Assembly: GCA_963805085.1 (NCBI GenBank)
Contig: CAWDTA010000002.1
Location: forward strand, 512,001-576,000
DNA from: an uncultured Veillonellaceae bacterium
GTDB lineage: Bacteria > Bacillota > Negativicutes > JARBTT01
Reading direction: 5' to 3'
Length of the DNA: 64,000 bases
The number at the start of each line of letters is the position of its first letter. Positions within the stretch are counted from its first letter, which is position 1. A program made the position numbers and the translations under genes. The notes below the pieces were generated by a model. That model made no database searches and was not told where the DNA came from. It saw nothing but the letters and a program-made list of their open reading frames with translations. Below are positions 4,162 through 30,621 of this stretch, piece after piece.

Positions 4162-7080
4162 TTATCCCAAACTTTCATTTTGATCAAAGACATTTATAAA
4201 TTCCATAGGCGTTTTTGCTCCTATTAACTCAGCTACTTTTTTCTCTTGTTTCAATATTCTAAATAATTCTGTCACTATATTAACGTCATGCTCTCCAATC
4301 GCCAACATACATATCAATTTAACTTTTCTTCCTTCACTATCCCATTCGACCGCATTTTTAAGTCGTAAAAATATGATGCAAGAATTGTTTACATAAGCAG
4401 ACATTCCATGAGGGATTGCTATTTCACCTTTAAAATAGGTAGTATTCATTTTTTCCCGCTCTACCACAGATTCAAGATATTCTTTTTTAATATATCCATT
4501 ATTAAATGCCAGCGCACACATACGCTCTAAGATTTGCTGCTTTGTCGTCAAGTCAAAATCCAATAAAATGGAATCTTCCCTTACTATGCTTCTTATTTTC
4601 ATCAAAGAATTGGGTTTTAAAATATAATCCAGAAAAATTTTATTACTATTTATAAAATCCTTTTCAAAAGAAATAAATTTTATCCCCTCGATTCCAGGAT
4701 TTATAGTTCCAACGATAGCCACAATATTATATTTCAATTTCAAACAATCAATTTTTTTCTTTAAATCCTCCTCAACCAGCCCTAATGTAAATATTTTCAA
4801 ATAACTATACCTATCTGATAGAACCGCTTTTATATTTTCTGCCATTCCTTGCCCAGTAAGACACATAGCAACTACTGCCGGAGGTTTTTGGGACTTATTA
4901 TCTGGCACCATTTGAAATTTATACTTTAGATTAACCAATTCATAATATATATCATCTAAATCTTTCTCTTCTATATAGACTTTTCTTACAGCTTCCAATA
5001 CAGTAAGGATATCGATTCTGTCAATCGTACGTGTCTTTATCCCCGTTCTTTTATTTATAACATCGCCGACATTGACCAAAGACCCCATGTCTACCAAAAA
5101 CAAGATTCCCTTTCCTGTATTTAGTATTTTTGCTATTTCTATAGTTTTTTCAAATATCTTAGAAGGATTCACAGCCAACGGCATATCAATAGCAATCGGG
5201 AAATGTATATTCATAAGCTCATTAACTACCTTTAACATTTCTGTCGCTATTTTGCCGTGACACATGATGATAATTCCTATTTTATTTTTTTTCTGCTTAA
5301 CTTCAAGCAATTTTTTTATATACATTGCGATAAAGCTTATTTCATCTTCCGGTATTTGAATTCTTTCTCTATTTTCAATTTTTAAAGCCAATTGACATGC
5401 CAGTTCATATTCTTCTTTCATATTTTTTCTTATATATAGAGAATTAGGATTTATTATTTCTACCTTAAAACGTATCCGCTTTATCGCCTCATTTATATGA
5501 ATAGCCAAATATAAAATAATATTCCCATTTATTGCACACTGCGGATATTTTACCTTTAACTCTATAACAAATTCTTTGAGAATATCAATAATAGAATCTT
5601 TTACGACATATTTCAGATTATCCAGACAAGCAATTTCATTTTTTATATTTGCATCAAAATCCATCATATTAAAATTTTTCATAATAAATGTCCACATAAT
5701 TTTTTCGATTTCGTCTGGGGATAAATCTAAATTTTTAAGTTTCTGATATTTTTTTTCTATTTTTTGATAGATATCCTCCGGTAGTGAATATTTCGTTTCC
5801 TTCATTACATTGTGATCCACAACCATAGCATCTGTATTATTTTGAGGAATCAAAAGTTTATCTTTTATAATCCTATTTAATTCAGACATATCATACGTAT
5901 CCACACTGGCATCTTCACTAAAAAAATTATTGTACAATATCTCATTTAACCCTATATCGATTTCATTTTTTCCTGAATTTATTTTATCTATATAAGCATT
6001 GGCACAAGTAACCTGTATTTCACTCTTAATTTGCCCTATATTCCCCTGATAGTCTTTTAAAATAAACGATTTAATTATTTTTTTATTTAAAAAAATTTTA
6101 GAATTAATTCGATTTGCTTCCACCTGAAAAAATTCATAAATCAACTGAACTTTCTCACTGGCAGAACGATTTTTCAGCGACGGCATCGAAATAATCATAG
6201 GAATTCTTCGCCGGAAACTTGTGAGCAAAGTTGATTCTATATTTTCCGTAGTAGCCCCAATAAAAAAAATGCGGGCCTTTCTTTCACCTGATGTTTCTCC
6301 CAACCTTCTGAAAGTGCCTTTATCCAATAACGAAAAAAGAATTTCCTGCCCTTTGGGTGGCAGCCTGTGTATTTCATCTAAAAAAAGTATATTATTATCG
6401 GCTTTTTCCACAAGACCTTCTGTATCTGTATCCGCCCCAGTAAAAGCCCCTTTTTTATAACCATATAGGATAGACAGTAATAATTGTGGATTATCTGCAT
6501 AATCCGCACAGTTTAACGACATAAACGCAGCATCTTCAGCGATAATATTCTCTTGAATAGCATACTTATGCATATATTCCACAAAAAGCGTTTTCCCTGT
6601 ACCACTTTCGCCTATGATGAGCGTTGCCAACCCAAAAGGTGGATATCGTACAGAGGCTTTCGCTTGTTTTATACAATTTTTAAGACTTCTATCATACCCC
6701 ACCAAGTTGCTAAAAATATCGGCCTTCTTATCTTGTGGTAGCTGCACCGGCTGCTGCCTCTGTAATTTCAAATCAACTTCATAGTTGTCAAGTGCTTTAT
6801 TTATATAAGGTACAGACACTTCAAAGCCCAGCTTCGCAAATTCCATACTGATCTGTTTTGAATTCATATCATTATTTTTCTTTTTTAAAGAATGTATAAT
6901 CTCCAAGATTGAATTTTTTTTTCGTTCTCTTGAATTTGGTATATTTAATTCGTTTCTAACATTGGTCACCGTTTCTCTCAATACAGAAATTTTCTGTGAT
7001 ATTTCTTCATCACTCAATGGCTGTGTAATATCTTCGCGTTCAATAATTTCTTTGATTTTTTTTAAGGTATTTTCGTTCAT
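4162..7080 (-). CDS. LevR/DgaR-type sigma54 enhancer-binding activator with PRD, EIIA(Man)-like and EIIA(Fru)-like domains
   Basis: GESGTGKT, GAFTGA, LFLDEIH, PRD motif YLAIH, IMCHG and C-terminal IAIPHG. The start is set at the ATG after a GGGGTGG RBS. Confidence 0.9.
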   Translation of the reverse strand: MNENTLKKIKEIIEREDITQPLSDEEISQKISVLRETVTNVRNELNIPNSRERKKNSILEIIHSLKKKNNDMNSKQISMEFAKLGFEVSVPYINKALDNYEVDLKLQRQQPVQLPQDKKADIFSNLVGYDRSLKNCIKQAKASVRYPPFGLATLIIGESGTGKTLFVEYMHKYAIQENIIAEDAAFMSLNCADYADNPQLLLSILYGYKKGAFTGADTDTEGLVEKADNNILFLDEIHRLPPKGQEILFSLLDKGTFRRLGETSGERKARIFFIGATTENIESTLLTSFRRRIPMIISMPSLKNRSASEKVQLIYEFFQVEANRINSKIFLNKKIIKSFILKDYQGNIGQIKSEIQVTCANAYIDKINSGKNEIDIGLNEILYNNFFSEDASVDTYDMSELNRIIKDKLLIPQNNTDAMVVDHNVMKETKYSLPEDIYQKIEKKYQKLKNLDLSPDEIEKIMWTFIMKNFNMMDFDANIKNEIACLDNLKYVVKDSIIDILKEFVIELKVKYPQCAINGNIILYLAIHINEAIKRIRFKVEIINPNSLYIRKNMKEEYELACQLALKIENRERIQIPEDEISFIAMYIKKLLEVKQKKNKIGIIIMCHGKIATEMLKVVNELMNIHFPIAIDMPLAVNPSKIFEKTIEIAKILNTGKGILFLVDMGSLVNVGDVINKRTGIKTRTIDRIDILTVLEAVRKVYIEEKDLDDIYYELVNLKYKFQMVPDNKSQKPPAVVAMCLTGQGMAENIKAVLSDRYSYLKIFTLGLVEEDLKKKIDCLKLKYNIVAIVGTINPGIEGIKFISFEKDFINSNKIFLDYILKPNSLMKIRSIVREDSILLDFDLTTKQQILERMCALAFNNGYIKKEYLESVVEREKMNTTYFKGEIAIPHGMSAYVNNSCIIFLRLKNAVEWDSEGRKVKLICMLAIGEHDVNIVTELFRILKQEKKVAELIGAKTPMEFINVFDQNESLG

Positions 7081-17143: not shown

Positions 17144-19389
17144 TAAAAGCGTCCCCTCTCTCTTGCAACCGCTGCTTGCCCAAGCGCTAGTCCACCATCA
17201 TTGGGCGGTACCTTCCGATTAAGCAACACAGTAAACTCTTTTTCTAATACTCCGTAAACCTGACGTAAAAGCGTCATATTCTGAAAAACGCCACCGCTTA
17301 AAGCTACTTTGTGAACACCAGTTAAACGACATAACCGTCGAACCATCTCATGAATGGCCGCGGCCATGGTCGTATGAAAATCTGCTGCCAGCTCTGCGCG
17401 TGGCACCTTATTTATATTCTCAATCATTTTGGCAAACGTTGGCCTAAAATCGAGTTCATTGCCAGCCGTAATCTCATATGGCAAAACTCTGCCAACGGCA
17501 CCGCCTGCTGCCAGTTCTAGTTCGATGGCGGCTTGTCCTTCATAATGATTATAAAGACGGATGCCAAGGAGTGCTGCCGCCGTATCAAAGAGCCGCCCAG
17601 CACTGGAGGTCAGCGGCGCATTCAGCCCATTAGCCGTTGCTTGTAATAGCAACTCCCAACCATTAGGTAGCAACTCTGTCAACGCCGTCTGTTTCTCTCG
17701 AAAATTCTTTCCGTATAGTTCCTGCATAACCCACGTCGCCTGTCGCCATGGCTGACGAACCGCTTTTTCCCCGCCCGGCAGCGGCAGATAAAGGCAATGT
17801 GCGAGTCGCTTATATTCTAGGCAATCTGCCAGCAGAAATTCACCGCCCCAAAGCTGACCATCAGCACCATAACCCGTACCATCAAAAGCCACGCCAATGA
17901 CCTGCTCCGTCTCGTGATGCTCAGCCAAAACCGAAGCAATGTGGGCGTGATGGTGCTGAACGCCAATTTTAGGCAGTTTCAATCCGTCAGCATACTTGGT
18001 CGATAAATACTCGGGATGCAGATCGAATGCTACCAATTCCGGCTTAATGTCAAATAATCTACCGTAATGTTCAATGGCCTCCGCATAGGAATCCATTGTT
18101 TCTCGATTGCCTAAGTCACCGATATGCGCGCTAACAAATGCCGCATCACCTTTAGTCAAACAAAAGGTATTCTTAGCCTCACCGCCACAGGCCAAAACCA
18201 TCGGCCCTGTTCCTGCCAAATGAATTGGCGCTGGTGCCAGCCCGCGACTACGCCTAAACAGATACGGCTCTTCCTTGAATAAACGGACAACTGAATCATC
18301 AACTCGGCAATAGATCTCCCGATTATGGATTAAAAAATAATCGGCGATTCCCGCCAATCTATGCAGAGCATCTTCATCCTTATAGGCAATCGGTTCCTCA
18401 CTGGTATTGCCACTCGTCATCACCCAGACATCATCTTTTTTAAGTAACAGATAATGCACTGGTGCGTAAGGTAACATCACTCCCAAATATAGATTGCCTG
18501 GGGCTACAGCCTGCGCTAAATCAGCAGCATTTTTTTTCTTCAATAGAACAATTGGTGCAACCGCTCCCATTAACAGCTCTCTTTCCTTCGTTGAAACAAA
18601 GCAAAATTGCTCTACTTTTGCCAAACTACCACACATCAAGGCAAACGGTTTATCCTCGCGAACTTTCCGCGAACGCAATGTAGCCACAGCAGTTTCATTT
18701 TTAGCATCGCAAACTAAATGATACCCACCAATGCCTTTTATGGCAAAAACGGCACCATTTTCTATCAGCTCATGCGCTGTCTTTAGCGGCTCAGAACTGA
18801 GTAGTTCCTGTCCCTTGCTGTCGAGCAGACGATACGATGGACCACAAATTGCACAGGCATTCGGCTGCGCATGAAAGCGACGATCAATCGGAACGTCGTA
18901 TTCCGCTTGACAATCTGGGCACATAGCAAAAGGCTGCATCGTCGTCTGCGGACGATCATAAGGCACATCTTTGATAATCGAATAGCGCGGTCCGCAATTT
19001 GTACAATTTGTAAACGCGTAGCCAAAGCGTCGATCAACGGGATTTTGCAGCTCCCTCTGGCAATCTGGACAAGTCGCAATATCCGGTGATATAAACGCGA
19101 ATCTTTGCGTAGCCGTCTGACTTGGCTTGATGACAAAAGCATCGTCCCCTTGCACTGGCAACGAAACCACCTGTAAATCAGCAATCATCGCCATCGCCGG
19201 CGCCTCTGCTTCTAGCGCTGTAATAAATTCTGTAAGCTGCTCAGCTAGGCCTTCAACCTCGATCCAAACACCTTTTTCATCATTGAGCACCCAGCCACTT
19301 AACTGATATTCGTGCGCCAACCGGTAAACAAAAGGGCGGAACCCGACGCCCTGTACAATACCGGCGACGCGGATGCCCGCCCTCTTCAT
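17143..19389 (-). CDS. hypF: Carbamoyltransferase HypF
   Basis: GIVQGVGFRPF, zinc fingers, QHHHAH, DGTGYG and PPNDGG. Confidence 0.97.
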   Translation of the reverse strand: MKRAGIRVAGIVQGVGFRPFVYRLAHEYQLSGWVLNDEKGVWIEVEGLAEQLTEFITALEAEAPAMAMIADLQVVSLPVQGDDAFVIKPSQTATQRFAFISPDIATCPDCQRELQNPVDRRFGYAFTNCTNCGPRYSIIKDVPYDRPQTTMQPFAMCPDCQAEYDVPIDRRFHAQPNACAICGPSYRLLDSKGQELLSSEPLKTAHELIENGAVFAIKGIGGYHLVCDAKNETAVATLRSRKVREDKPFALMCGSLAKVEQFCFVSTKERELLMGAVAPIVLLKKKNAADLAQAVAPGNLYLGVMLPYAPVHYLLLKKDDVWVMTSGNTSEEPIAYKDEDALHRLAGIADYFLIHNREIYCRVDDSVVRLFKEEPYLFRRSRGLAPAPIHLAGTGPMVLACGGEAKNTFCLTKGDAAFVSAHIGDLGNRETMDSYAEAIEHYGRLFDIKPELVAFDLHPEYLSTKYADGLKLPKIGVQHHHAHIASVLAEHHETEQVIGVAFDGTGYGADGQLWGGEFLLADCLEYKRLAHCLYLPLPGGEKAVRQPWRQATWVMQELYGKNFREKQTALTELLPNGWELLLQATANGLNAPLTSSAGRLFDTAAALLGIRLYNHYEGQAAIELELAAGGAVGRVLPYEITAGNELDFRPTFAKMIENINKVPRAELAADFHTTMAAAIHEMVRRLCRLTGVHKVALSGGVFQNMTLLRQVYGVLEKEFTVLLNRKVPPNDGGLALGQAAVARERGRF

Positions 19390-19895
19390 AACGTATTTAC
19401 GATTAACTCAGTTTTTAATTTTGGTTCAACCTGCCAAACTTTTAACTGTTCTAAAACAAGATTTTTCGTTTTCTCCACCAAATTTTCCATGTCTTTCGTA
19501 AGACCTACCCCAGCATCCACGATAAAGGGTTGCGCACCCATCACGATAACGTCCTTCACAGGCCGATCTATTACTTCAAGCGCTGCTAATACATCTTGAA
19601 TTCCAAGCTCATGCATAGAAACTTTTTCCTGAAAATAAGCTTTCACTTCCGCGTTGACAAAGCGAAAGAAAGTCCCAGGTGCCGAAGCCCCATTGATTGC
19701 ATCCACCACGATTAATTTGTCTGTTCCAATAATATAATTCATCAATTCCATACCAAGTGTCCCGCCATCAAGTACCGCAACATGCTCAGGGAAGTTATAT
19801 TCTTGCTGTAACTTTTCAACGATATGTACACCAAAGCCTTCGTCTTTAAGTATAATATTGCCGATTCCTAGCACTGTAATCTTATCCACGTGCAT
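19386..19895 (-). CDS. hyaD: Hydrogenase maturation endopeptidase (HyaD/HybD family)
   Basis: LGIGNIILKDEGFG, DGGTLG and VDA motifs. Confidence 0.9.
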   Translation of the reverse strand: MHVDKITVLGIGNIILKDEGFGVHIVEKLQQEYNFPEHVAVLDGGTLGMELMNYIIGTDKLIVVDAINGASAPGTFFRFVNAEVKAYFQEKVSMHELGIQDVLAALEVIDRPVKDVIVMGAQPFIVDAGVGLTKDMENLVEKTKNLVLEQLKVWQVEPKLKTELIVNTL

Positions 19896-20556
19896 TCACC
19901 ACCATCTTTTTTGCTACGACTTTTCCCTTGAGCCAATCATACCAAGCTTCAAGACCAGCATTACTGGTACAAGACACATCTAGTACAGAGATACTAGGAT
20001 GAATACTCGTAATATCTTTTTTTGCCGCAGCCATATCAAAATTTGTATATGGCAGTAAATCTACTTTATTCAAAACAGCAATTGCTGATTCCTTAAAAAT
20101 TAACGGATATTTTAAAGGTTTATCATCGCCTTCTGTAATGCTCAGCACAACTGCTTTCGCATCCTCGCCAACATTAAATTCCGCCGGACAAACAAGGTTG
20201 CCGACATTTTCAACGACTAATAAATCCAAATTTTCTAAATCTAATTCTTTCAATACTTTTTGAACCATCGCTGCATCTAAATGACAACCACCGCTCGTAT
20301 TGATCTGAATCACAGGTACATCATATTTAGCAATACGATCAGCATCCTTCGAAGTAAACAAATCTCCTTCGATAACTGCCATACGCAAATGGTCTCTTAA
20401 AGCTGCCATTGTCTTCTCAAGTAAAGATGTCTTACCTGATCCTGGCGATCCCATCAGATTGAGAACAAAAACTCCCTGCTTCGCAAAAAGCACCTGATTC
20501 TCTGCCGCGAGTCGATCGTTCTTGCCTAAAATATCTTCCATCACCTGAATTTCCAT
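19882..20556 (-). CDS. hypB: Hydrogenase nickel-insertion GTPase HypB (short form)
   Basis: GSPGSGKT, CHLDA, ENVGNLVCP and NKVD motifs. Confidence 0.96.
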   Translation of the reverse strand: MEIQVMEDILGKNDRLAAENQVLFAKQGVFVLNLMGSPGSGKTSLLEKTMAALRDHLRMAVIEGDLFTSKDADRIAKYDVPVIQINTSGGCHLDAAMVQKVLKELDLENLDLLVVENVGNLVCPAEFNVGEDAKAVVLSITEGDDKPLKYPLIFKESAIAVLNKVDLLPYTNFDMAAAKKDITSIHPSISVLDVSCTSNAGLEAWYDWLKGKVVAKKMVVNARG

Positions 20557-20897
20557 TAGTCTACCTCCAAATACTCTACCTGCATCTCTCTGCCAGACAA
20601 AATTTCTAGCTGTCCCGAACCACAATTAGGACATAAAAAATTATAATGTTCAATATGCGTATCCTTGCCACATTCCCTGCAATGACCCACTAACGGTATC
20701 TTATGTAGTTTTAATTCAGCTGTTTCTGCTATTGTCCCCCTAGTCAGTGCTGCAAAACAAAATTGCAGAGCATCCGTCTCCACTCCAGACATCTCGCCTA
20801 AGCGGAGGCTGATGCACTGGATTTTTTGCGCTTGATTGCGCGCTGCATAATCCAGTGCAATATCCAATATGCCTTCTGCGATCGCCATCTCATGCAT
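20556..20897 (-). CDS. hypA: Hydrogenase nickel chaperone HypA
   Basis: MHE start and two CxxC motifs. Confidence 0.96.
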   Translation of the reverse strand: MHEMAIAEGILDIALDYAARNQAQKIQCISLRLGEMSGVETDALQFCFAALTRGTIAETAELKLHKIPLVGHCRECGKDTHIEHYNFLCPNCGSGQLEILSGREMQVEYLEVD

Positions 20898-20940
20898 ATA
20901 AAAACCTCCACAGCCGGGCCTGAAAGCCCGGCTGTTTGTT

Positions 20941-21186
20941 TTAAATAACGGCTTCTAAACCGTGTTTTGTAAATACGTCTGTAATTTCCGACAATCTTGT
21001 TTTTGCCGGACTATAATCAATTGTTGTTTCGCCATCATGCGCATGAATATGAACATGATATACTCCTGGTAGTCCTAGCAAAATCCGTTCGACTACATCT
21101 ACATTGTCCTTTTGATAGCCTTTTACAAAAAATTTAAGCTGTGTATTCTTGCCTTGTGCTGAACAGCCGCAATCTGTGCACATCAT
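20941..21186 (-). CDS. Small HMA-like metal-binding protein with N-terminal CxxCGC and HxHxH
   Basis: MCTDCGC...LPGVYHVHIHAHDG...IDY, located inside the hydrogenase operon. Confidence 0.7.
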   Translation of the reverse strand: MMCTDCGCSAQGKNTQLKFFVKGYQKDNVDVVERILLGLPGVYHVHIHAHDGETTIDYSPAKTRLSEITDVFTKHGLEAVI

Positions 21187-21207
21187 AGTTCCCCCAATTT
21201 CCTTTTA

Positions 21208-21972
21208 CTATTTCATTTTTCTTTCTTGCTCGCCAGCAGGCACTGGTTTATGATCCGAAAATGTGTTGGAGCTTTCTTTATCCATGATTTCTCCCACATC
21301 TACTGGTTCATGTTCGAGGATCTTCACGCCGGAAAACATGCTGGAAATCTCGCCTTCGCCTTCCATAAAGTCTGCTCTAATTGCCATATAAACATGACCA
21401 ATCACAAATAACATAATCGCCCAAGCTATATAATGATGAATTAAATGGATCATAAATTCGCTGCCAAAGATACCGATTGTCCAACCAAAAAGCTTTGCTC
21501 CGAAACCATTCGGATTCACCATAAAATACATGGCAAATCCCGTAATGATTTCAATGAGCACCATACTATAAAGCCCTACATAGGACATACGAGCCAATGG
21601 ATTGCGTAAATATGGTTTATGCGACGGTTTAATCAGCATATAGTGCATTGATACATCGATCATTGCCTGCCAAAAAGCAGGTTCCCAAACCCGAGGGAAT
21701 AAACGATCCCCCTTATTAATCACAAAACCATATATTCTCAATATAAATGCCGCAACAAAAATGAATGCCGCTATAAAGTGTATATTGCGAATGAGGTCAA
21801 GCGATATGATCATGCTGCCAAATGTTGGCTCCATGCCAACACCGCCGGACACAGGCTTTGTAACAAATAAGCCCGTCACGAACAAGAGGATGATACAAAT
21901 CACCATAATCCAGTGAAAAATTCGCAAAAACGGACTGAATAGATAATATACCTTCCGAGGTTCTTCACTCAT
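21208..21972 (-). CDS. hyaC: Ni/Fe-hydrogenase b-type cytochrome subunit
   Basis: RIFHW, RNIH, NPLA, HLIHH and GHVY heme ligands; four TM helices. Confidence 0.92.
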   Translation of the reverse strand: MSEEPRKVYYLFSPFLRIFHWIMVICIILLFVTGLFVTKPVSGGVGMEPTFGSMIISLDLIRNIHFIAAFIFVAAFILRIYGFVINKGDRLFPRVWEPAFWQAMIDVSMHYMLIKPSHKPYLRNPLARMSYVGLYSMVLIEIITGFAMYFMVNPNGFGAKLFGWTIGIFGSEFMIHLIHHYIAWAIMLFVIGHVYMAIRADFMEGEGEISSMFSGVKILEHEPVDVGEIMDKESSNTFSDHKPVPAGEQERKMK

Positions 21973-22046
21973 TATCATCGATCCCTGCTACTCGTCCTTC
22001 TCGTAGCTTTTCCTTTCATTATATTCCATATATATTTGTATTGATG

Positions 22047-23957
22047 TCACTCTTGGTTCGTTCTTAAATAAGGGTCTGTTGTCACAACCTTTATCTTCTT
22101 GCCATCGGCATTATATAAATGCGTTGCACAAGCCATACAAGGGTCAAACGAACGAATCACTTTCAAAATTTCCAATGGTTTGTCTGGAATCTTAACCTTC
22201 GTATCCATCATCGCTTTTTCATAAGCACCATGCTCACTCTTATTATCACGTGGGCAAGCATTCCAAGTCGTTGGAACAATGGCCTGATAATTTGCGATTT
22301 TCCCATCCTTAATGACAACCCAATGACTTAAAGCGCCACGTGGTGCTTCATATAGACCAACGCCTTTACATTCTTTTGGCCAAGTCTTCGGATCCCATTT
22401 CGTAGTGTCGGCAACTTTGGTATCGCCAGCTTTAATATTCTTAATCAACTTATTGAAGTAATATTTAGCAATATGTGCATGCACTTGTGCTTCTAACGCC
22501 CGAGTAGCTGTACGACCAACCATTGTCGTCATCCATACCTCTGGTGCCAAATTCAAAACTTTAGACACAGCTTCGATTTGATCCATGATCATTTTTTCTA
22601 CCCAAGTTGGTTCTGTAATCAAACCTTTCTTTATCTTGGTATAAATAATGATATAACGAGATAAAGGTCCAACTTCCGCCATCTTACCGCGCCATTTTGG
22701 TGTCTTAAGCCAAGAATATTTTCCATCTTCATCAAGCGTTTTCCAATCTGTCTTCGTGCCTTCTTTAGGTCCGGTATATTTTGCTTTCGTTACACCTTCC
22801 CAAGGATGAAGATCTTTACCTTCAGCATTTGGATACTCATACCAAGAATGTTCTACGCCTTCATTTAACACCTCTGAATCTGATAAATCTTCGGCTTTAA
22901 AATCATAGAACTTCGCAGCATCCAAGCCTTTACCAAAATCCTCTACTACACCATTACAGCGTAATAATAAATTCTTGTGGAAATCCCCATTGGTCGTTCC
23001 CGTATAAGGTTCATCTGGATAATCTCCAAAGCCTAATACTCTTTCTTTCGCCATTCCGCCGCCATCGACATAGCCCTTTTCTACATACATCTTACCAATC
23101 GCTAAAACATCTGGCAAATAAAAATCATTGACTAAATTAATCGTCGTATTAAGAGAACGATCTACGACTGCTAGACGTTCGGTATTTACCGGCGCATTCA
23201 TATCATCCATAGAAATTGAGCAAGGCATTCCGCCAACAACATAGTGTGGATGCGGATTTTTACCGCCAAAAATAACATGTGAAATAACAATTTCCCGCTG
23301 TTTATCAAGCATTTCCAAATAATGCGCTATGCCTAAAAGATGCACTTCTGGTGGCAATATTTGAAAATCAGGATGATCCCACCATTGCGCAGCAAAAATA
23401 CCAAGTTGTCCGCTTTCGACAATGTCTTTTACCTTTTTTTGAATTTTTTGATAATAAGCCGGCGTTGCTTTTGGAAATTCTTTTGGATAGGCTTCTGTAT
23501 CAAGAACTTCTGGTTCGGTAACTTTCACTTGATACGTTGAAAGTATTGTATTTTGCAATGCTGCCGTTGCTGCAGGATCCGCCTTTAGAGCTTCTACTGG
23601 ACTCACCCAGTCTAAAGCATGCAAATGATAAAAATGAATTACGTGATCCTGTACTGATTGTACTGCCGCCATGATATTTCTTATGTAATTTGCATTTTTA
23701 GGAATTGTAATTCCTAAAGCATCCTCTACTGCACGTAAAGAACCAAGTGCATGTGCTGTCGTACAGACACCACAAATTCTCTGAATAAATGCCCAACCAT
23801 CTCGTGGATCTCTATCGTTCATAATAAGTTCTAAACCACGCCAAGCAGTACCACTCGATAAAGCGTCTTCTACTTTGCCCGTTGCTTCATCTACTTTAAC
23901 TTCTACCCTTAAATGACCTTCAATACGCGTAATCGGATCAACTACAACTCGCTTCAT
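22047..23957 (-). CDS. hyaB: Group 1 [NiFe] hydrogenase large subunit
   Basis: DPITRIEGH, RICGVC and DPCMACATH, with a cleavable C-terminal tail. Confidence 0.96.
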   Translation of the reverse strand: MKRVVVDPITRIEGHLRVEVKVDEATGKVEDALSSGTAWRGLELIMNDRDPRDGWAFIQRICGVCTTAHALGSLRAVEDALGITIPKNANYIRNIMAAVQSVQDHVIHFYHLHALDWVSPVEALKADPAATAALQNTILSTYQVKVTEPEVLDTEAYPKEFPKATPAYYQKIQKKVKDIVESGQLGIFAAQWWDHPDFQILPPEVHLLGIAHYLEMLDKQREIVISHVIFGGKNPHPHYVVGGMPCSISMDDMNAPVNTERLAVVDRSLNTTINLVNDFYLPDVLAIGKMYVEKGYVDGGGMAKERVLGFGDYPDEPYTGTTNGDFHKNLLLRCNGVVEDFGKGLDAAKFYDFKAEDLSDSEVLNEGVEHSWYEYPNAEGKDLHPWEGVTKAKYTGPKEGTKTDWKTLDEDGKYSWLKTPKWRGKMAEVGPLSRYIIIYTKIKKGLITEPTWVEKMIMDQIEAVSKVLNLAPEVWMTTMVGRTATRALEAQVHAHIAKYYFNKLIKNIKAGDTKVADTTKWDPKTWPKECKGVGLYEAPRGALSHWVVIKDGKIANYQAIVPTTWNACPRDNKSEHGAYEKAMMDTKVKIPDKPLEILKVIRSFDPCMACATHLYNADGKKIKVVTTDPYLRTNQE

Positions 23958-25054
23958 TATTCCACCTTCTTCCCGTCAGACTTTTCCTCAGCTGCCTGGC
24001 GTTTTTTCTTCTGTACTACAGACATTGCGCCATGAAGAGCAACACCAGCAGCGGTTAATCCAACAGCCGCCGCACCTATTTTGTCGATATCACCAAGTAT
24101 TGGTCCATACTCTGGCAGACGTTTATAAAATGGCGCTTCATCCCAGAAATGATCATTACTGCAACCAATGCAACCATGTCCAGATTGTATTGGATACGAA
24201 AGGCCATTCCACCATCTTAAGTTTCCGCAAGAATTATAAGTTACCGGACCGCGGCAACCTAGTTTATAGAGACACCAGCCAGCTTTTGAACCAGCATCAT
24301 CAAAATTTTCTGCAAACATTCCCGTATCAAAAAACGGACGACGATAGCAGGTATCATGAATACGGTTACCATAAAATTGTTTTGGACGACCTTCGCTATC
24401 AAGCGGTGGCAATTTTCCAAACAAGGCGTAATGCATAACAACGCCTGTCATCACTTCTGGAATCGGTGGGCAACCTGGAACCTTAACGATCGGTTTACTA
24501 TTACCGACAATCTCTCTTATACTAACCGATCCCGTAGGATTTGGTTTAGCAGCTTGAATGCCGCCACTGGTTGCACATGATCCATACTCAATAATTGCTG
24601 CAGCGTTCTTAGCTACTTCTTTCAATACCGTTACAAATGGTTTTCCACCAGTCATACAATAAATGCCGTTTTCAGCTGTCGCGGCTGCACCTTCTACTGC
24701 CAAGATATACTTGCCAGAATATTGCTGCATGATATCATGCAAATGCGCTTCAAATGGTTCACCAGCCCCTGCACTTAGTGCATGGCTATATTCCAATGCA
24801 ATCGAATTCAACACTACATCGGAAGTAAGTGGTGTTCCCGACCGAAGAAATGATTCATCACAACCGGTACATTCATGCCCATGAAGCCAGATGACAACCG
24901 GCAAAGGATTTTTTTCTGCGGCTGCAACGACCTTCGATACCATATCAGTATTAAGCCCCATGATACTGGTCAATGCCACACACGACTTAAGAAAGCTACG
25001 ACGGTTGATGTTTTTTCGGAGACAGACGTCCCACATAGTTTCTGATTTATCCAC
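23957..25054 (-). CDS. hyaA: [NiFe] hydrogenase small subunit with Tat signal and C-terminal anchor
   Basis: RRSFLK, ECTGC, GCPP, HDTC and CLYKLGCRGP. GTG start after a GAGGAGGGG RBS. Confidence 0.95.
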   Translation of the reverse strand: MDKSETMWDVCLRKNINRRSFLKSCVALTSIMGLNTDMVSKVVAAAEKNPLPVVIWLHGHECTGCDESFLRSGTPLTSDVVLNSIALEYSHALSAGAGEPFEAHLHDIMQQYSGKYILAVEGAAATAENGIYCMTGGKPFVTVLKEVAKNAAAIIEYGSCATSGGIQAAKPNPTGSVSIREIVGNSKPIVKVPGCPPIPEVMTGVVMHYALFGKLPPLDSEGRPKQFYGNRIHDTCYRRPFFDTGMFAENFDDAGSKAGWCLYKLGCRGPVTYNSCGNLRWWNGLSYPIQSGHGCIGCSNDHFWDEAPFYKRLPEYGPILGDIDKIGAAAVGLTAAGVALHGAMSVVQKKKRQAAEEKSDGKKVE

Positions 25055-25584
25055 TATACCCCTCCTCATTTCATTGGATGATGCAATACTTACAGGAAAC
25101 CGCATTTATTTTTTACATCACCTGCCTTTCAGCTGCCATTGATGAAAAAATTTTTATACAACAAATAGCCTCTTTATATTCTAAAGAAGCTACTTGCTTT
25201 TTGTTTCAATGGATATGCACATCCTATTGCCTTTGATCAGTCTGAAATCTTTTGATGCTTCTCCATTGAAATATACAAAAAACATAGCCAAACATAAGAA
25301 TAAAACAATTTAAATATTACCTTTTTTCTACATTATATTCCCAACATAAAGAAAAGTCTATATTTATCAACCCTTATTTTATCATAAATTTTTTTAATGA
25401 TTCATTTGTGAAATAAAAACTCCTTATACACTAGTTATTTTTTTAACCACTCCTTCAACTTTAAGCTCTAATACATAGTTAAACATATAAAAACTACACC
25501 TCTAAATATTAGATTTATTTAGCTACTATTTAGAGGTGTAGTTCAAGACTAGGGGTAACCGTTTAAATAATGGACTATAACCTC

Positions 25585-25727: not shown

Positions 25728-26480
25728 TTATTTTGTTATTTTATTTACCCTGTCCTTATTAATTCCTGTGATCTCTGCTATTTTTCTTAATGGTAAATTT
25801 GTTTTCTCTTTAAATTTTTTCAGTTTCTCTTCTAAGTTCTCTTCACTTTTTGCAAGCTCATTCCATAACTTTATTGCTTGGCTTTCTTCCATTCGATTTG
25901 CTTTTTCATCTATTTCAATAAATTTATCTTCTTCTTTCATATTTGTGAATTTGATAAACTCTTCTTTTGCTTCATTTTTATCTTCTGAAAATATTCCTAG
26001 AACTAATTCTTTATCTATTGCCTTTGCTAAAGCAGTATCTTCTTCTATATAGCCTTTATAACTACTCCATTTATATTTTTCTGCTTTTTTCACGATGCCA
26101 GCTTTGACTGGATTTTTATGAATATACCTTGTTGCCATTAATAGATAGCTATCATCTTCTATTTTTTCGCTTCTATATCTATCTTGAAATAGGTGGCCTG
26201 TCTTTTTATATTTTTTATTAAAGTAAAAGACATAGCTAATATTGATTCGTTTCATTATATTAGCTATGTCTTCTTCTCTTTCTTGCAATAGCAAATGGGC
26301 ATGATTATCCATTATGCAAAATGCAATAAGACCATATCTGTTATTTTCTTTTTTCGTTTTTAGTATTTCTATAAAGTGCATTTTATCTTGGTCATCTATG
26401 AAGATATCTTTTCGATCGTTACCTTTTATCACTATATGGTAATACCCTGTATTACTTTTATCTCTTTGCTGTCTTGGCAT
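25728..26480 (-). CDS. REP-associated tyrosine transposase (RAYT, HUH Y1), family A
   Basis: YHIVIKGN, CIMDNHAHLL, HLFQDRY, YIHKNPVKAG and YKWSSY; flanked by palindromes. Confidence 0.9.
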   Translation of the reverse strand: MPRQQRDKSNTGYYHIVIKGNDRKDIFIDDQDKMHFIEILKTKKENNRYGLIAFCIMDNHAHLLLQEREEDIANIMKRINISYVFYFNKKYKKTGHLFQDRYRSEKIEDDSYLLMATRYIHKNPVKAGIVKKAEKYKWSSYKGYIEEDTALAKAIDKELVLGIFSEDKNEAKEEFIKFTNMKEEDKFIEIDEKANRMEESQAIKLWNELAKSEENLEEKLKKFKEKTNLPLRKIAEITGINKDRVNKITK

Positions 26481-26531
26481 GATAATCCACTCCTTTTTTC
26501 CCCAGATTATCATACCAGATTAGTTTAGTCA

Positions 26532-26684: not shown

Positions 26685-26714
26685 TTGACATATAGGGGCT
26701 TGTTATGTTAATAT
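26685..26714 (+). promoter_or_regulatory. Sigma70 promoter of the tRNA-like RNA
   Basis: TTGACA-18 bp-TAATAT with an extended -10 TG; conserved in the second copy. Confidence 0.7.
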
Positions 26715-26727
26715 TTGTATATGACAC

Positions 26728-26815
26728 GGAGAGGTGGTCGAGTTGGCTTAAGACAATTGATTAATTTCAGTGTACGTTTTACGTACCGTAGGTTCAAATC
26801 CTACTCTCTCCGCCA
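26728..26815 (+). tRNA. tRNA-Ser-like RNA with aberrant anticodon arm (copy A)
   Basis: Acceptor GGAGAGG/TCTCTCC, G73 and encoded CCA, D-arm GTC..GG..GAC, long variable arm GTACG-TTTTA-CGTAC and T-arm GTAGG-TTCAAAT-CCTAC. The anticodon arm ATTGA-TTAATT-TCAGT has a 6-nt loop and no Ser anticodon. Confidence 0.85.
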
Positions 26816-26826
26816 ATAAAAAATGT

Positions 26827-26859
26827 AAAACTATTATGTGTGAGCATAGTAGTTTTTTT
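26827..26859 (+). terminator. Intrinsic terminator after the tRNA-like RNA
   Basis: AAAACTATTATG-tgtgag-CATAGTAGTTTT followed by a T-run; present in both copies. Confidence 0.65.
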
Positions 26860-26890
26860 ACAAATATCAAAAAGTTAGGAGAATTTTATT

Positions 26891-27022
26891 ATGTCATTAT
26901 CACAATTAGCAATAATTGAAGATTATCATTCTTTGGAAGTATCTAGAACAACTTATCCTAACTACAAATACTATTGCGTTAAATACAATTTAAGCACTAA
27001 GGATAATATTACATTAATTTAA
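26891..27022 (+). pseudogene. 43-aa truncated paralog of the 296-aa protein at 32557-33447 (or a small peptide)
   Basis: MSLSQLAIIEDYHSLEVSRTTYPNYKYYCVKYNLSTKDNITLI*; the first ~32 aa align with the 296-aa protein. AGGAG RBS. Confidence 0.7.
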
Positions 27023-27085
27023 AACTATGAATGATTATAGTAATATGCATGGCTATTAATAAAAAATAGAAGGGGATATGCTAAC

Positions 27086-28105
27086 ATGAAAAAAAACAAA
27101 TGTAGTAATCTTGAAAAAATTGAATTTCAGCTTACAACTTCGTGCAACATGAAGTGCAAATTTTGTTTTCATGGTGATGAAGTATCTTACCAAAGATTAG
27201 ATACTGATGTAGTATGCAAGTCTATCAAAGAACTCACATTTCAAACAAAATCAGGTTATCCTTATGCAAATCTAAAGTCTGTATGGCTGACTGGTGGAGA
27301 GCCTCTGTTAGAAATGGAGGCCGTTTCAGAAATCATTAAAATAAGCAAATCTATGAATTTAATAACTGTCATAAGCACAAATGGACTCCTTCTTGAAAAA
27401 AATCTTGATCAATTACTGAAATCTGGTTTGGATGAAGTTAAAATTTCATTAGATTCGCTAGATACTAATTTATTTCAAAACCTTAGAGGTGGATCGCTGT
27501 CAACCGTTCTAAATAATATTAAATTAGTAGCAAAGACTCCTATAAAAACACATATTAGAATAACAGTGAACAATGACAATGTTAATAGTATTGGTAACAT
27601 TGTTGAAGAAATGGCAGATGTTGGCCTTGCTACTATTGAACTTAAAGCGGTTCTTCCAATAGGTCGTTCTGATTTTAGATTCATGCCTAATCACAATATA
27701 CTAGAAAAGGCAATAAACGATGCAATAAAAAAAATACCACCAAATAAGGCAACTCCATATGTAACAACGATATGTAATTATCTTGCTCCATGTAAAGGAT
27801 TTTCTGTTAGTCCAAATATCCCTTGCACTTGTAGTCACTCATCACTTTATATAGCTGCTACTGGAGATATCCTTCCCTGTGGGTATTTTCCAAAAGAAAG
27901 TCAATATAATATTTATCGCGATTCTCTTTTAGATGGATGGACAGGTTCCTTTTTTAATACTATAAGAAACAGTGCTCCTGAGAAGTGTACAACATGTAAA
28001 GACTGGGATTTATGTAAGAATGGATGCCCAGCAGTGCTTTATAACCATGGTGACCTTAATAACTCTTGTTTTGAGCTCATTACTGAAAAAATAGCAAAAA
28101 ATTAA
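27086..28105 (+). CDS. Radical SAM enzyme with SPASM domain
   Basis: CNMKCKFC, TGGEPLL, STNG, ISLDS, and a C-terminal C...GDILPC...CTTC..WDLCKNGCPA...C. Confidence 0.92.
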   Translation: MKKNKCSNLEKIEFQLTTSCNMKCKFCFHGDEVSYQRLDTDVVCKSIKELTFQTKSGYPYANLKSVWLTGGEPLLEMEAVSEIIKISKSMNLITVISTNGLLLEKNLDQLLKSGLDEVKISLDSLDTNLFQNLRGGSLSTVLNNIKLVAKTPIKTHIRITVNNDNVNSIGNIVEEMADVGLATIELKAVLPIGRSDFRFMPNHNILEKAINDAIKKIPPNKATPYVTTICNYLAPCKGFSVSPNIPCTCSHSSLYIAATGDILPCGYFPKESQYNIYRDSLLDGWTGSFFNTIRNSAPEKCTTCKDWDLCKNGCPAVLYNHGDLNNSCFELITEKIAKN

Positions 28106-28171
28106 TTATTATTGGTCATTGTCAATAATAATTAATGATAATCTATTTTACATTTTTAGGAGAGTATTTTC

Positions 28172-29344
28172 ATGTTATTGTCCAATAAAAAAAAGATAGT
28201 AATACTTTCAGTCGCACATTTGATTAATGACTGGTATATGAATTTCATTCAGGTTTTAATGCCATTTTTCGTAATGTATGGAATAGGATTAAGTAAGGGC
28301 GCTTTCCTGATAGCTGCATTCACAATTACTTCATCCTTAATGCAGCCGTTGTTTGGTTATTTAGTCGATCATAAAAATCAGCAATGGATGATCTATTTTG
28401 GCACTGCTTGGATGGCGATATTTGTAAGCCTGCTTGGAAGGTTTAATAATTATCCATTATTAGTTATTGTTGCGACTTTATCTGGTGTAGGGACAGCTGC
28501 ATTTCATCCTCAGGCTTCTGCTATAGTTAGCGCATTAAGTAATAATAGAAAGAACTTTTTTCAAGCTTGCTTTATTGCTGCAGGAAATCTTGGTGGAGCA
28601 CTTACTCCAGTAATTGTTATTCCTTTTGTTGAAGTTTATGGTCTAGAGCTGATGCCTGTATTTATATTGCCAGGAGTAGGGATTGCTATTTTACTTTGGT
28701 TATTTTCTGCACCTAAAAAACCAGTGAAAGAGCAGCTTGTTCTTTCATCATTACCGCCAATTCCTCGTAGTTCTTTGGTAGAGCTTAGTAAGTTAGTAAT
28801 AGTTGTATCAATTCGTTCACTGGTTAATTATGGGTTAATTGCTTTTTTGCCATTATATCTTCAATCGATGAATGTTTCTCTTCAAGCCAGTAGCCATCTG
28901 CTTTTTATAATGTTATTTTTCGGGGCTATTGGTGGGATTTTAGGCGGATATTTAGCAGATATCTTTGGAAGAAAATTAATACTTGTAGGTTCATTATTTA
29001 TTTCCAGTCCTCTATTTTACTTTTTCCTTAATAGTGATGGCTTTACAAGTAAAGTATTTTTAGCCTTCGCTGGAACGGCACTTTTAGCATCATATTCTAT
29101 TACGGTAGTGATTGCGCAAGAAATTATTAATACTAGAACATCTCTTGCATCTGGGATAATAGTTGGATTTAGCAATGGAGCCGGTGGACTTGGTGTGGGG
29201 ATTTTAGGACTAATCGCCGAACATATGGGCATTGCATATATTATCAATTTATTAATTTGGATACCTTTAATTATTAGCTTATTTAGTTTGATTATTAATG
29301 ATAAGCAGGATTCTACTCTACGTTTTTCAAATAGTGAGATATAA
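28172..29344 (+). CDS. MFS transporter (Fsr-like)
   Basis: About 12 TM helices; HLIND, AAFHPQA and GYLADIFGRK motifs. Confidence 0.9.
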   Translation: MLLSNKKKIVILSVAHLINDWYMNFIQVLMPFFVMYGIGLSKGAFLIAAFTITSSLMQPLFGYLVDHKNQQWMIYFGTAWMAIFVSLLGRFNNYPLLVIVATLSGVGTAAFHPQASAIVSALSNNRKNFFQACFIAAGNLGGALTPVIVIPFVEVYGLELMPVFILPGVGIAILLWLFSAPKKPVKEQLVLSSLPPIPRSSLVELSKLVIVVSIRSLVNYGLIAFLPLYLQSMNVSLQASSHLLFIMLFFGAIGGILGGYLADIFGRKLILVGSLFISSPLFYFFLNSDGFTSKVFLAFAGTALLASYSITVVIAQEIINTRTSLASGIIVGFSNGAGGLGVGILGLIAEHMGIAYIINLLIWIPLIISLFSLIINDKQDSTLRFSNSEI

Positions 29345-29383
29345 TCAGGTAATAAAGAAGTCTGTCGGAGCAGGTGAGATAGA

Positions 29384-30440
<1,057 letters not shown>

Positions 30441-30581: not shown

Positions 30582-30621
30582 TAAAATGAATAAACCCCCA
30601 TAATCGGGGGTTTATTCATTT
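30582..30621. terminator. Bidirectional terminator between the two convergent operons
   Basis: AAAATGAATAAACCCCC-ataatc-GGGGGTTTATTCATTTT. Confidence 0.8.

Follow-up and report, generated by a model that had tools for sequence, protein, structure and literature searches.

Only very few cases of transfer RNAs (tRNAs) dedicated to work outside translation are known, and in these the anticodon is normal. The non-proteogenic tRNA-Gly species of Staphylococcus aureus are core-genome tRNAs whose anticodon loop is normal; selenocysteine tRNA (tRNA-Sec), whose acceptor and T stems are arranged 8/5, has an extended D stem and decodes on the ribosome with a functional UCA anticodon. The former are encoded by extra tRNA genes, act as donors for the non-ribosomal FemXAB enzymes, and carry a T stem (A49-U65, U50-A64, and A51-U63) that is weaker for EF-Tu (PMC7826273). 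The latter is of the serine type, with a long variable arm and G73, is charged by seryl-tRNA synthetase (SerRS), and is kept off ordinary EF-Tu (PMC9976931). The present analysis concerns an RNA that resembles each of these in part. It is encoded twice in a 64,000-nucleotide stretch of DNA from an uncultured Veillonellaceae bacterium (contig CAWDTA010000002.1, positions 512,001 to 576,000), hereafter the window, together with a gene for a synthetase-like protein of 296 residues.

The RNA is probably a dedicated, non-decoding partner of this synthetase-like enzyme and a descendant of tRNA-Ser, as judged from a comparison of homologous loci. The initial annotation, made from the letters of the window alone, had proposed that the acceptor end of the RNA was kept and decoding lost. 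This central proposal is supported by the helices of 14 distinct RNAs, by an anticodon arm that is free to vary, and by the synthetase-like partner.

The tRNA-like RNA and its relatives

In the window, two tRNA-shaped genes (copies A and B, Table 1) were called "tRNA-???" by ARAGORN, with a two-base anticodon "aa"; against the Rfam tRNA model RF00005, with a gathering score of 29, they reached 41.4 and 41.0 bits, respectively. The acceptor stem has seven base pairs, GGAGAGG/UCUCUCC with a G7-U66 wobble, and is followed by G73 and an encoded CCA. U8 is present, the D stem has three base pairs and its loop contains GG, the variable arm has five to six base pairs followed by C48, and the T arm reads GUAGG-UUCAAAU-CCUAC (G49-C65, U50-A64, and A51-U63). 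Every body feature of an elongator tRNA-Ser (7-bp acceptor stem, G73, CCA, long variable arm, GG in the D loop, and T loop) is present. The decoding arm of such a tRNA, with its 5-bp stem, a 7-nt loop holding U33, a purine at position 37, and a serine anticodon, is not found; in both copies a 5-bp stem closes a 6-nt loop, UUAAUU. Direct reading, ARAGORN, and Rfam bear out what had been reported of the acceptor stem, the G73-CCA end, the GG of the D loop, the variable arm, and the T arm, and the six-nucleotide loop is as described. For copy B, the minimum-energy fold (-25.5 kcal/mol) is the cloverleaf itself; for copy A, whose folding z-score against 200 shuffles is -3.39, the cloverleaf lies 0.6 kcal/mol or less above the minimum. 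The host genome, an assembly of five contigs that is 83% complete, encodes a normal set of tRNA-Ser (UGA, GCU twice, CGA, and GGA), and Ser(CGA) is the host tRNA closest to the window RNA.

The two copies differ at exactly two positions, the number given beforehand: 26747 (C/T, in the D loop) and 26760 (A/G), the latter changing A31-U39 into G31-U39. The initial annotation had regarded this as weak evidence of selection, an argument that falls on comparison with the adjoining DNA, since the RNA differs no less (2/88) than its flanks do (5/95, 1/75, and 3/80). The pair is a recent duplicate and is uninformative on selection.

The pattern of selection emerges instead from homologues at other loci that encode the protein family (numbered here with the prefix L). 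Fourteen distinct RNAs were aligned to a structure model, a fit that in itself favours pairing; several near-duplicate loci carry identical RNAs (L010, L024, and L026-L028; L011 and L032; L014 and L022; L018 and L025). Across the acceptor, D, variable, and T helices, 99.7% of 294 cells hold standard pairs, with each helix 99-100% paired on its own, and 7 of the 21 pairs have changed on both sides, a number reached by none of 500 shuffles. Control alignments in which the partners were slid by one to three columns were 37-52% paired, with at most one pair changed on both sides. Compensation in the variable arm is visible in the raw sequences (ACACGA/UCGUGU, AUACGA/UCGUAU, AUAUGC/GCGUAU, and GUACG/CGUAC), as is the replacement of G52-C62 by C-G in L020. 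The acceptor stem reads GGAGAGG in 13 of the 14 RNAs, at a place where the canonical tRNA-Ser of the same or related genomes vary; G73 and A51-U63 are present in all 14 and an encoded CCA in 13. Outside the anticodon arm, the gammaproteobacterial and plasmid RNAs are 80-83% identical to the window RNA, and the proteins encoded beside them are approximately 47-53% identical to the window protein.

Two irregular copies were encountered among these loci. On the Salmonella plasmid, a second and more diverged tRNA-like copy stands in tandem (L017:5500-5602, minus strand; 83 bits with RNA model R2), in which A1-U72 replaces G1-C72, one acceptor pair is mismatched, and the T loop is altered. On a plasmid-like metagenome contig, the tRNA-like gene is split in its T arm (L023:1-120 and 5806-5922, minus strand) by an insert of several kb, the ends of which resemble IS1.

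The anticodon arm, folded for 12 sequences, always forms a hairpin, and nothing else about it is fixed. The window RNA has 5 bp and a 6-nt loop; L019 has 5 bp and a 7-nt loop, UUUCAUA, that reads as UCA; and the E. coli plasmids have a 4-bp stem with the loop CUCUUGA, containing U33 and G37, that reads as CUU. L010 has 12 bp and a 5-nt loop, interrupted 11-bp hairpins with 4- or 5-nt loops are found in L011, L012, L016, L017, and L029, the stem of L006 has 8 bp and an irregular top, and that of L020, judged by eye, has 7 bp. Such a pattern, the opposite of random decay, is the one expected, on the evidence of the alignment, of an RNA family that keeps the shape of a tRNA and a specific acceptor end without having to read codons, and it fits a partner enzyme without an anticodon-binding domain. 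One copy on an E. coli plasmid (L014:156-244, NZ_CP086226.1) is named "tRNA-Lys" in RefSeq, a label that stems from the 4-bp stem with the loop CUCUUGA, though its body, G73, and long variable arm are of the serine type; the name is probably misleading and should be flagged as an annotation problem.

That label, the 7-nt loop with U33 and G37 behind it, and the UCA reading of L019 are what could be cited for a tRNA that does translate, either by misinserting serine or another residue at certain codons or frames or as a natural recoding cassette with an enzyme of its own. A tRNA-like RNA with a synthetase-like gene and a transporter does outwardly resemble a transferable tRNA/synthetase cassette. 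Nevertheless, the window copies have loops of six nucleotides, 8 of the 12 folded sequences have long hairpins with 4- to 6-nt or irregular loops that are not expected to present an anticodon, the loop sequence varies between clades so that no codon is common to the family, and the enzyme would have no anticodon-binding domain. Translation as the role of the family is very improbable, and the serine-misincorporating option raised by the initial annotation is unlikely for the window copy and the long-hairpin members.

It is more improbable still, to an extreme degree, that the RNA is a decaying or hitch-hiking tRNA-Ser pseudogene, such as the remnant of an integration site of the surrounding island. 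Several circumstances could be read that way: integration often takes place at tRNA genes, the island has IS200-like transposase genes on both sides, the protein occurs in none of 400 other genomes of the same class, and the irregular copies of L017 and L023 are, respectively, more degenerate and split by insertion. Against it stand the four helices, which remain paired with compensation in all 14 RNAs while only the anticodon arm varies, the promoter-like site that the RNA has to itself, and its presence on 5.8-kb plasmids otherwise annotated with the enzyme gene, a second hypothetical gene, and mobilisation and replication genes. Random decay over all arms in homologues, which had been named beforehand as the outcome that would speak for an ordinary pseudogene, was looked for in the same alignment and was not seen, the variation being confined to the anticodon arm.

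The synthetase-like protein and its linkage to the RNA

The 296-residue protein had no sequence match in Pfam (E up to 0.01), NCBIfam, or PADLOC, nor, by profile search, in the PDB, and a Pfam scan of 23 further family members, 21 of them distant, gave nothing meaningful. Its family is small, with 62 representatives in a profile search of 1.84 billion protein representatives. Among clusters at 90% identity, 74 relatives were found, whose source names, where given, are never functional, and 50,697 phage records held no match. A protein atlas offered a single weak lead, a cluster with DIT1_PvcA in 53% of its members, at a recognition value below the trusted level.

The predicted structure was more informative than the sequence. 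An AlphaFold model built on a 15-sequence alignment reached a predicted local distance difference test score (pLDDT) of 91.5 and a predicted template-modelling score (pTM) of 0.90, and its significant Foldseek matches were arginyl- and cysteinyl-tRNA synthetases and MshC. In a structure search independent of Foldseek (VIA, wide), all 50 matches listed were class I synthetases or MshC, with Z scores from 13.6 to 7.4 and root-mean-square deviations of 3.3-4.7 over 166-217 residues. Among them were ArgRS (Z 13.6), MshC (3c8z, over model residues 4-294; Z 12.1), CysRS (Z 11.8), MetRS (Z 11.4), GluRS (Z 10.4), and GluQRS (4a91; Z 9.8). On the strength of this model, the protein is a stand-alone catalytic domain of the class I synthetase type, predicted to be without an anticodon-binding domain because the catalytic-domain match takes up the whole of the 296 residues and no longer homologues were found; the search for homologues of 519-2000 residues or fused forms, which returned none, counts as weak evidence.

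Invariant in the wider family are the His of an SGGH motif after the first strand, an N-D pair, an Arg, and three cysteines, with a fourth cysteine mostly conserved; together, these suggest a candidate nucleotide site and a candidate metal site. The SGGH His presumably lies at the place of the HIGH motif of class I synthetases, which is a lead and not a test. With hhalign, probabilities against the CysRS and ArgRS of the host stayed under 1%, and no alignment of the HIGH/KMSKS or ATP-binding motifs was obtained; a TrpRS, sought for the same motif comparison, was not found in the host's 83%-complete assembly. Cyclodipeptide synthases gave no profile match to the protein and were absent from the matches listed by either fold search, though a relationship is still conceivable.

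Of 33 loci with a gene of the protein family, the window among them, 20 have the RNA within the fetched flanks. It was present at 4 of 11 loci from genome collections (Serratia, Edwardsiella, a proteobacterial metagenome-assembled genome (MAG), and a Lentisphaerae MAG), at all four plasmid records fetched (two E. coli plasmids of 5.8 and 6.0 kb, an Enterobacter IncF plasmid, and a 194-kb Salmonella plasmid), and, at the Rfam gathering score, at 9 of 17 metagenome loci, to which RNA model R1 added two more (L020, with no encoded CCA, and L023, with the RNA gene split by insertion). The RNA-bearing loci come from Gammaproteobacteria, the Lentisphaerae MAG, and metagenome contigs. The loci with no RNA nearby comprise those of alphaproteobacterial type (L003-L005, L007, L008, L013, L021, and L033) as well as L009, L030, L031, L034, and L035, the last a 1.9-kb contig. 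Rfam at E up to 1 found none at five RNA-less loci, and model R1, run on 15 loci, found only L020 and L023. In the whole genomes of five RNA-less loci, from assemblies that may be incomplete, the eight best places given by model R1 were inspected and proved to be ordinary tRNAs, seven tRNA-Ser and one tRNA-Tyr. On a tree of 18 family proteins, the RNA accompanies 11, namely 7 of 7 in the gammaproteobacterial clade and 4 of 4 among the window, L006, L019, and L020; five alphaproteobacterial members, L030, and L009 lack it, and two changes of state account for this distribution.

Mobility is a further feature of the pair. The gene was found in 21 of 5,426 complete E. coli genomes, always on a plasmid, and in 20 of the 72,556 plasmids of PLSDB, of which 17 are mobilisable. 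Annotation of the E. coli plasmid NZ_CP086226 lists genes for the RNA, the enzyme, and a transporter-like protein and, apart from these, mobilisation and replication genes only.

The position of the RNA relative to the enzyme gene varies, being upstream on the same strand in the window, L019, and L020, divergent at the gammaproteobacterial loci, and 3 kb downstream in L006, which argues for action in trans. This bears on the alternative of a cis-acting element that binds no amino acid, whether a processing or stabilising signal for RNase P or RNase Z or a leader controlling the genes downstream. In the window, a hairpin and a U run do lie between the RNA and the open reading frame (ORF), the whole unit of promoter, RNA, and hairpin has been duplicated before a second operon, and the RNA stands just upstream there as in L019 and L020, all of which would suit such an element. 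It is decidedly improbable, given that the RNA lies on the opposite strand in every fetched locus of Gammaproteobacteria type with an intact copy and downstream in L006, and that the invariant G73 and the CCA encoded in 13 of 14 RNAs are needed by no processing signal.

Action in trans could also be that of an RNA with a regulatory or decoy role, one that sequesters some protein that binds tRNA (SerRS, the CCA-adding enzyme, RNase P, or a toxin) and is no substrate of the enzyme. The identity features of tRNA-Ser are intact and decoding is lost, as a decoy would have it, and a precedent exists in the tRNA-Other of Bacillus cereus, a non-translating pseudo-tRNA that alters physiology (PMC3399842). 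Such a role would leave the tight linkage to one enzyme family across phyla unexplained, the loop that anticodon nucleases cut is not conserved, and the enzyme matches no PADLOC defence family. A decoy is improbable on balance, and the particular decoy that the initial annotation had entertained, one resistant to anticodon nucleases, is unlikely since the loop is not conserved.

The island and its module

The features of the island are collected in Table 1. Each copy of the RNA forms the centre of one arm of an inverted duplication of about 350 bp, which comprises the promoter-like site, the RNA, the hairpin with its U run, a ribosome-binding site, and the first 28 or so codons of the ORF. The hairpin was not flagged by a consensus terminator scan, as it has too few G-C pairs. 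The island was acquired, since IS200-like transposase genes flank it and the 296-residue protein is missing from the 400 same-class genomes mentioned above.

Table 1. Positions and properties of the features found in and at the edges of the island (positions are those of the window).
Feature	Position	Strand	Properties
IS200-like Y1 transposase gene, left island edge	25728..26513	-	PF01797, E 2e-17
Promoter-like site, copy A	26685..26714	+	TTGACA, 18 nt, TAATAT, TG before second hexamer; 10/12 matches; ends 14 nt before the RNA
tRNA-Ser-like RNA, copy A	26728..26815	+	88 nt; loop UUAAUU; G73; encoded CCA; model R2 83.9 bits
AT-rich terminator-like hairpin and seven-U run	26824..26862	+	Between RNA and ORF; RNAfold -13.4 kcal/mol
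43-codon remnant of a second synthetase-like gene	26891..27022	+	Matches the start of the 296-residue gene for ~28 codons, then diverges and stops; no Pfam family
Radical S-adenosylmethionine (SAM)/SPASM gene	27086-28105	+	First gene of the operon downstream of copy A (27086..30097)
Major facilitator superfamily (MFS) transporter gene	28172-29344	+	Copy A operon
CuyB-like amino-acid racemase gene	29384-30097	+	Copy A operon; NF052483, 225.8 bits (cut-off 190)
Frameshifted foreign SerRS fragment	30105..30432	+	About residues 99-210 of 425
Metallo-beta-lactamase (MBL)-fold protein gene	30621..31463	-	Part of the module; model pLDDT 89
EamA/DMT-family transporter gene	31537..32454	-	PF00892, E 3e-31; TIGR00950, E 5e-15
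Synthetase-like 296-residue gene	32557..33447	-	Stand-alone; whole at copy B; followed by the EamA and MBL genes
tRNA-Ser-like RNA, copy B	33524..33611	-	2 differences from copy A; model R2 85.1 bits
Promoter-like site, copy B	33625..33654	-	Hexamers identical to those upstream of copy A
Truncated IS200-like transposase copy, right island edge	33859-34323	-	Recognised by eye from the translation

The SerRS fragment, which sits between two converging operons, is 68% identical in protein to the host SerRS with no DNA match to the host gene, and has a GC content of 49% against 31% for the island. The set of radical SAM, MFS, and racemase genes downstream of copy A was not seen at any other locus whose flanking ORFs were scanned, such scans having covered part of the loci. 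The 43-codon remnant directly precedes the radical SAM/SPASM gene (26891-28105), whose best NCBIfam match is a PapB-type peptide maturase at 104 bits, far under the cut-off of 340. The closest relative of the module in the window is found at L019:4229-8039, where EamA, MBL, tRNA-like, and enzyme genes adjoin genes for a Tn3-family resolvase and a transposase.

MBL proteins recur in the module. Twelve of them from 11 loci (the window, L003, L005, L006, L010-L013, L019, L020 with two, and L029) were aligned and share the motifs FDTG, SHxHxDH, GGFHL, and HCTG; in L004, L007, and L008 too, Pfam identifies an MBL-fold neighbour of the enzyme gene, and the annotations of the Enterobacter and Salmonella plasmids show genes for MBL fold hydrolases in its vicinity. 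None is annotated on the small E. coli plasmids or present among the scanned ORFs of L009 and L030. By Foldseek, the model of the window protein is closest to two uncharacterised structures, 2p4z (template-modelling (TM) score 0.92, 38% identity) and 3h3e; it also matches the phosphodiesterase tw9814 (7dck, TM 0.76) and, more weakly, PhnP-type diphosphatases, RNase Z/ELAC, and Apyc1.

A transporter gene is likewise usual, with families that differ from locus to locus: EamA in the window, L019, and L030 (adjoining the enzyme gene in the latter two), MFS in L006, a TehA-like protein in L009, and a protein of 372-377 residues at the gammaproteobacterial loci and on the plasmids. The L010 copy of the last is a distant relative of serine/threonine transporters (NCBIfam TIGR00814, E 8.5e-22, far below the cut-off), and the Enterobacter and Salmonella plasmid copies bear the RefSeq name "threonine/serine transporter". 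Three alphaproteobacterial loci (L003, L004, and L007) have a NUDIX gene just upstream.

The surroundings of the island in the window may be described briefly. To its left, a hydrogenase cluster was recognised by eye on the minus strand (19386-25105), with small and large subunits, a cytochrome b-like membrane protein, and maturation proteins. Just past its right edge stand two adjacent genes for PixA-type inclusion-body proteins (34650-35924; PF12306, E 1e-41 and 2e-25). The window to the right of the island is rich in mobile elements and includes, by eye, an ORF of IS200-like transposase type (36250-37008) and a DDE-type transposase-like ORF of 525 residues (39236-40813). Strongly palindromic stretches at 34294-34375 and 26217-26281 match unrelated microRNA models on both strands, under the gathering scores; their positions are within or at the IS200-like transposase genes, and they may represent end hairpins of the element.

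Possible charging and function, and comparison with known systems

Serine identity rests on a long variable arm and G73, the anticodon being ignored by SerRS (PMC9976931), and several observations point to serine in the present case. Compensatory change is most frequent in the variable-arm helix (3 of 6 pairs), the island holds a fragment of a foreign SerRS gene, the transporter of the gammaproteobacterial loci is a distant relative of serine/threonine transporters, and in two of the five genomes whose loci are without the RNA, tRNA-Ser(CGA) has the acceptor stem GGAGAGA.

The T stem is a weaker argument. With the single-pair energy values in Table 2 of PMC3239215, applied to 75 of the 77 host tRNA genes, the stem of the window RNA (GC/UA/AU) comes to +0.7 kcal/mol, as opposed to -0.2 to -0.4 kcal/mol in the five host tRNA-Ser genes; it is some 1 kcal/mol weaker than these and falls within the range of the other host tRNA genes (-1.1 to +1.5 kcal/mol). 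The initial annotation had argued from A51-U63 to poor binding of EF-Tu, and was right that the S. aureus non-proteogenic tRNA-Gly carry this pair (PMC7826273). The stem is indeed weaker than that of host tRNA-Ser; the argument nevertheless loses most of its force because an identical stem is found in host tRNA-Asn and tRNA-Arg.

Aminoacylation of the RNA at A76 and its use by the enzyme away from the ribosome are inferred, and the route tentatively favoured, with slightly more doubt than confidence, is loading by SerRS. The host SerRS, blind to the anticodon, would read the long variable arm and G73 and load serine on A76; the abnormal anticodon arm, together with a T stem weaker than that of host tRNA-Ser, would keep the seryl-RNA off the ribosome; and the synthetase-like enzyme would use or transform the RNA-bound serine. 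An amino-acid-derived product might then leave through the transporter (EamA in the window), with the phosphodiesterase-type MBL protein acting on a nucleotide or on the 3' end of the RNA. The dedicated RNA may have evolved from tRNA-Ser(CGA), sparing translation from drain or corruption, and in two of the five genomes without the RNA, tRNA-Ser(CGA) itself, with its acceptor stem GGAGAGA, could substitute. SerRS loading is favoured because the variable-arm helix is maintained though a single domain of 296 residues is unlikely to reach it, and because serine identity ignores the anticodon, with the SerRS relic in the island, the serine/threonine-type transporter of the gammaproteobacterial loci, and the near-identical stem of tRNA-Ser(CGA) pointing the same way.

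The main rival, which is less likely though by no means negligible, is a private charging pair, in which the 296-residue enzyme would activate an amino or carboxylic acid with ATP and load A76 of the RNA itself, with SerRS uninvolved and the RNA then serving as an aminoacyl carrier. The catalytic fold of a class I synthetase, with Z scores up to 13.6, would be apt for this task, the invariant SGGH His after the first strand offers a lead, and the E. coli plasmids carry just the RNA, the enzyme, and a transporter-like gene besides those for replication and mobilisation. Moreover, the identity of the acceptor stem in 13 of the 14 RNAs, from distant hosts, exceeds what SerRS alone would be expected to demand, to judge from the varying stems of tRNA-Ser. 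On the other side, compensation has kept a variable-arm helix that so small an enzyme would hardly reach, RNA-less clades would need another acceptor, and the ATP-binding motifs could be aligned with those of no synthetase.

Several points weigh against the view of the RNA as a non-decoding, serine-loaded partner of the enzyme and should be given due consideration. Thirteen of the 33 loci are without the RNA nearby, and because no dedicated RNA was found at these loci or in the five whole genomes, the enzyme family does not strictly need one. Two members, those of the E. coli plasmids and L019, have fairly normal 7-nt loops with U33 and could decode. The T stem of the window RNA recurs in three host tRNA-Asn(GUU) genes and in tRNA-Arg(CCG), no link at the level of sequence joins the 296-residue protein to any synthetase, and recognition by the co-transferred enzyme would account for the invariant acceptor stem as readily as recognition by SerRS. 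Lastly, copy A, which now precedes another operon and the remnant of a dead gene, may be redundant.

With regard to function, the presence of a transporter and the location on plasmids and next to transposon genes point to a compound that is derived from an amino acid and exported; detoxification is also conceivable. A bolder proposal, to be regarded as rather unlikely as yet, is that the module is a mobile, self-contained system in which the RNA plays the part of a carrier protein, holding an amino acid while the enzyme builds or alters a small molecule that is then exported. Should this hold, the system may turn out to be of a new kind. On mobilisable E. coli plasmids of about 5.8 kb, the module could be the basis of very small "microcin"-type antagonists; the plasmid pMccD93 is reportedly of matching size. 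Microcin D93 is under 1 kDa and encoded on pMccD93, and its gene has never been identified according to PMC10233263.

A full-text search of one library of papers, supplements aside, returned no description of a serine-type tRNA with a degenerate anticodon arm linked to a synthetase-like gene. Among enzymes, GluQRS (YadB) and MshC are alike in having a free-standing class I catalytic fold of about 300 residues with no anticodon-binding domain. Neither they nor the cyclodipeptide synthases, themselves stand-alone relatives of the class I catalytic domains, show sequence similarity to the 296-residue protein, and none of the three is known to have a dedicated tRNA-like gene of its own. The valanimycin pathway draws on ordinary tRNA-Ser and a different transferase family and is not known to involve a special RNA, and tRNA-Other of B. 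cereus is reportedly an RNA of a single lineage and not of the serine type. Cyclodipeptide synthases use aminoacyl-tRNAs to make small molecules (PMC12945691), and in the valanimycin pathway, through the SerRS VlmL and the transferase VlmA, seryl-tRNA serves as a small-molecule donor (PMC3239215, PMC12945691); its pathway-specific SerRS parallels the SerRS fragment of the island. The pseudo-tRNA tRNA-Other, located beside a genomic island, is alike in affecting the cell without translating, and the abstract describing it mentions neither a co-transferred enzyme partner nor a multi-phylum family (PMC3399842).

Membership in two groups of unusual tRNAs was considered and rejected. Allo-tRNAs are known with a 9/3 arrangement. 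An 8/4 arrangement is described as well (PMC7609411), and the window RNA is 7/5. It is likewise no tRNA-Sec: unlike the RNA of the tRNA-Sec/SelA system, it combines the 7/5 arrangement with a D stem of three base pairs, the window copies carry no UCA anticodon, its family has no conserved anticodon, and genes like those for SelA, SelB, or PSTK were absent from the flanking ORFs scanned. From the S. aureus tRNA-Gly it differs in its degenerate anticodon arm, its serine type, and its mobility, and in its partner, which is not a Fem transferase and is synthetase-like, of no known family. The RNA belongs to neither the S. aureus tRNA-Gly group nor the tRNA-Sec group. It would function in the manner of the former and, on the SerRS-loaded route, in that of the latter, where an amino acid is altered on a special tRNA that SerRS has charged. 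In the present case, selection appears to have let go of the decoding end and to have held the remainder of the RNA, and inheritance and transfer join the RNA, as one unit, to an uncharacterised enzyme family of the synthetase fold. If the pairing is confirmed, it would represent a natural tRNA/enzyme pair working apart from translation and a likely new tRNA-dependent route to a small molecule on plasmids of enteric bacteria, and one that is easily tested, as a single 5.8-kb E. coli plasmid accommodates the entire system.

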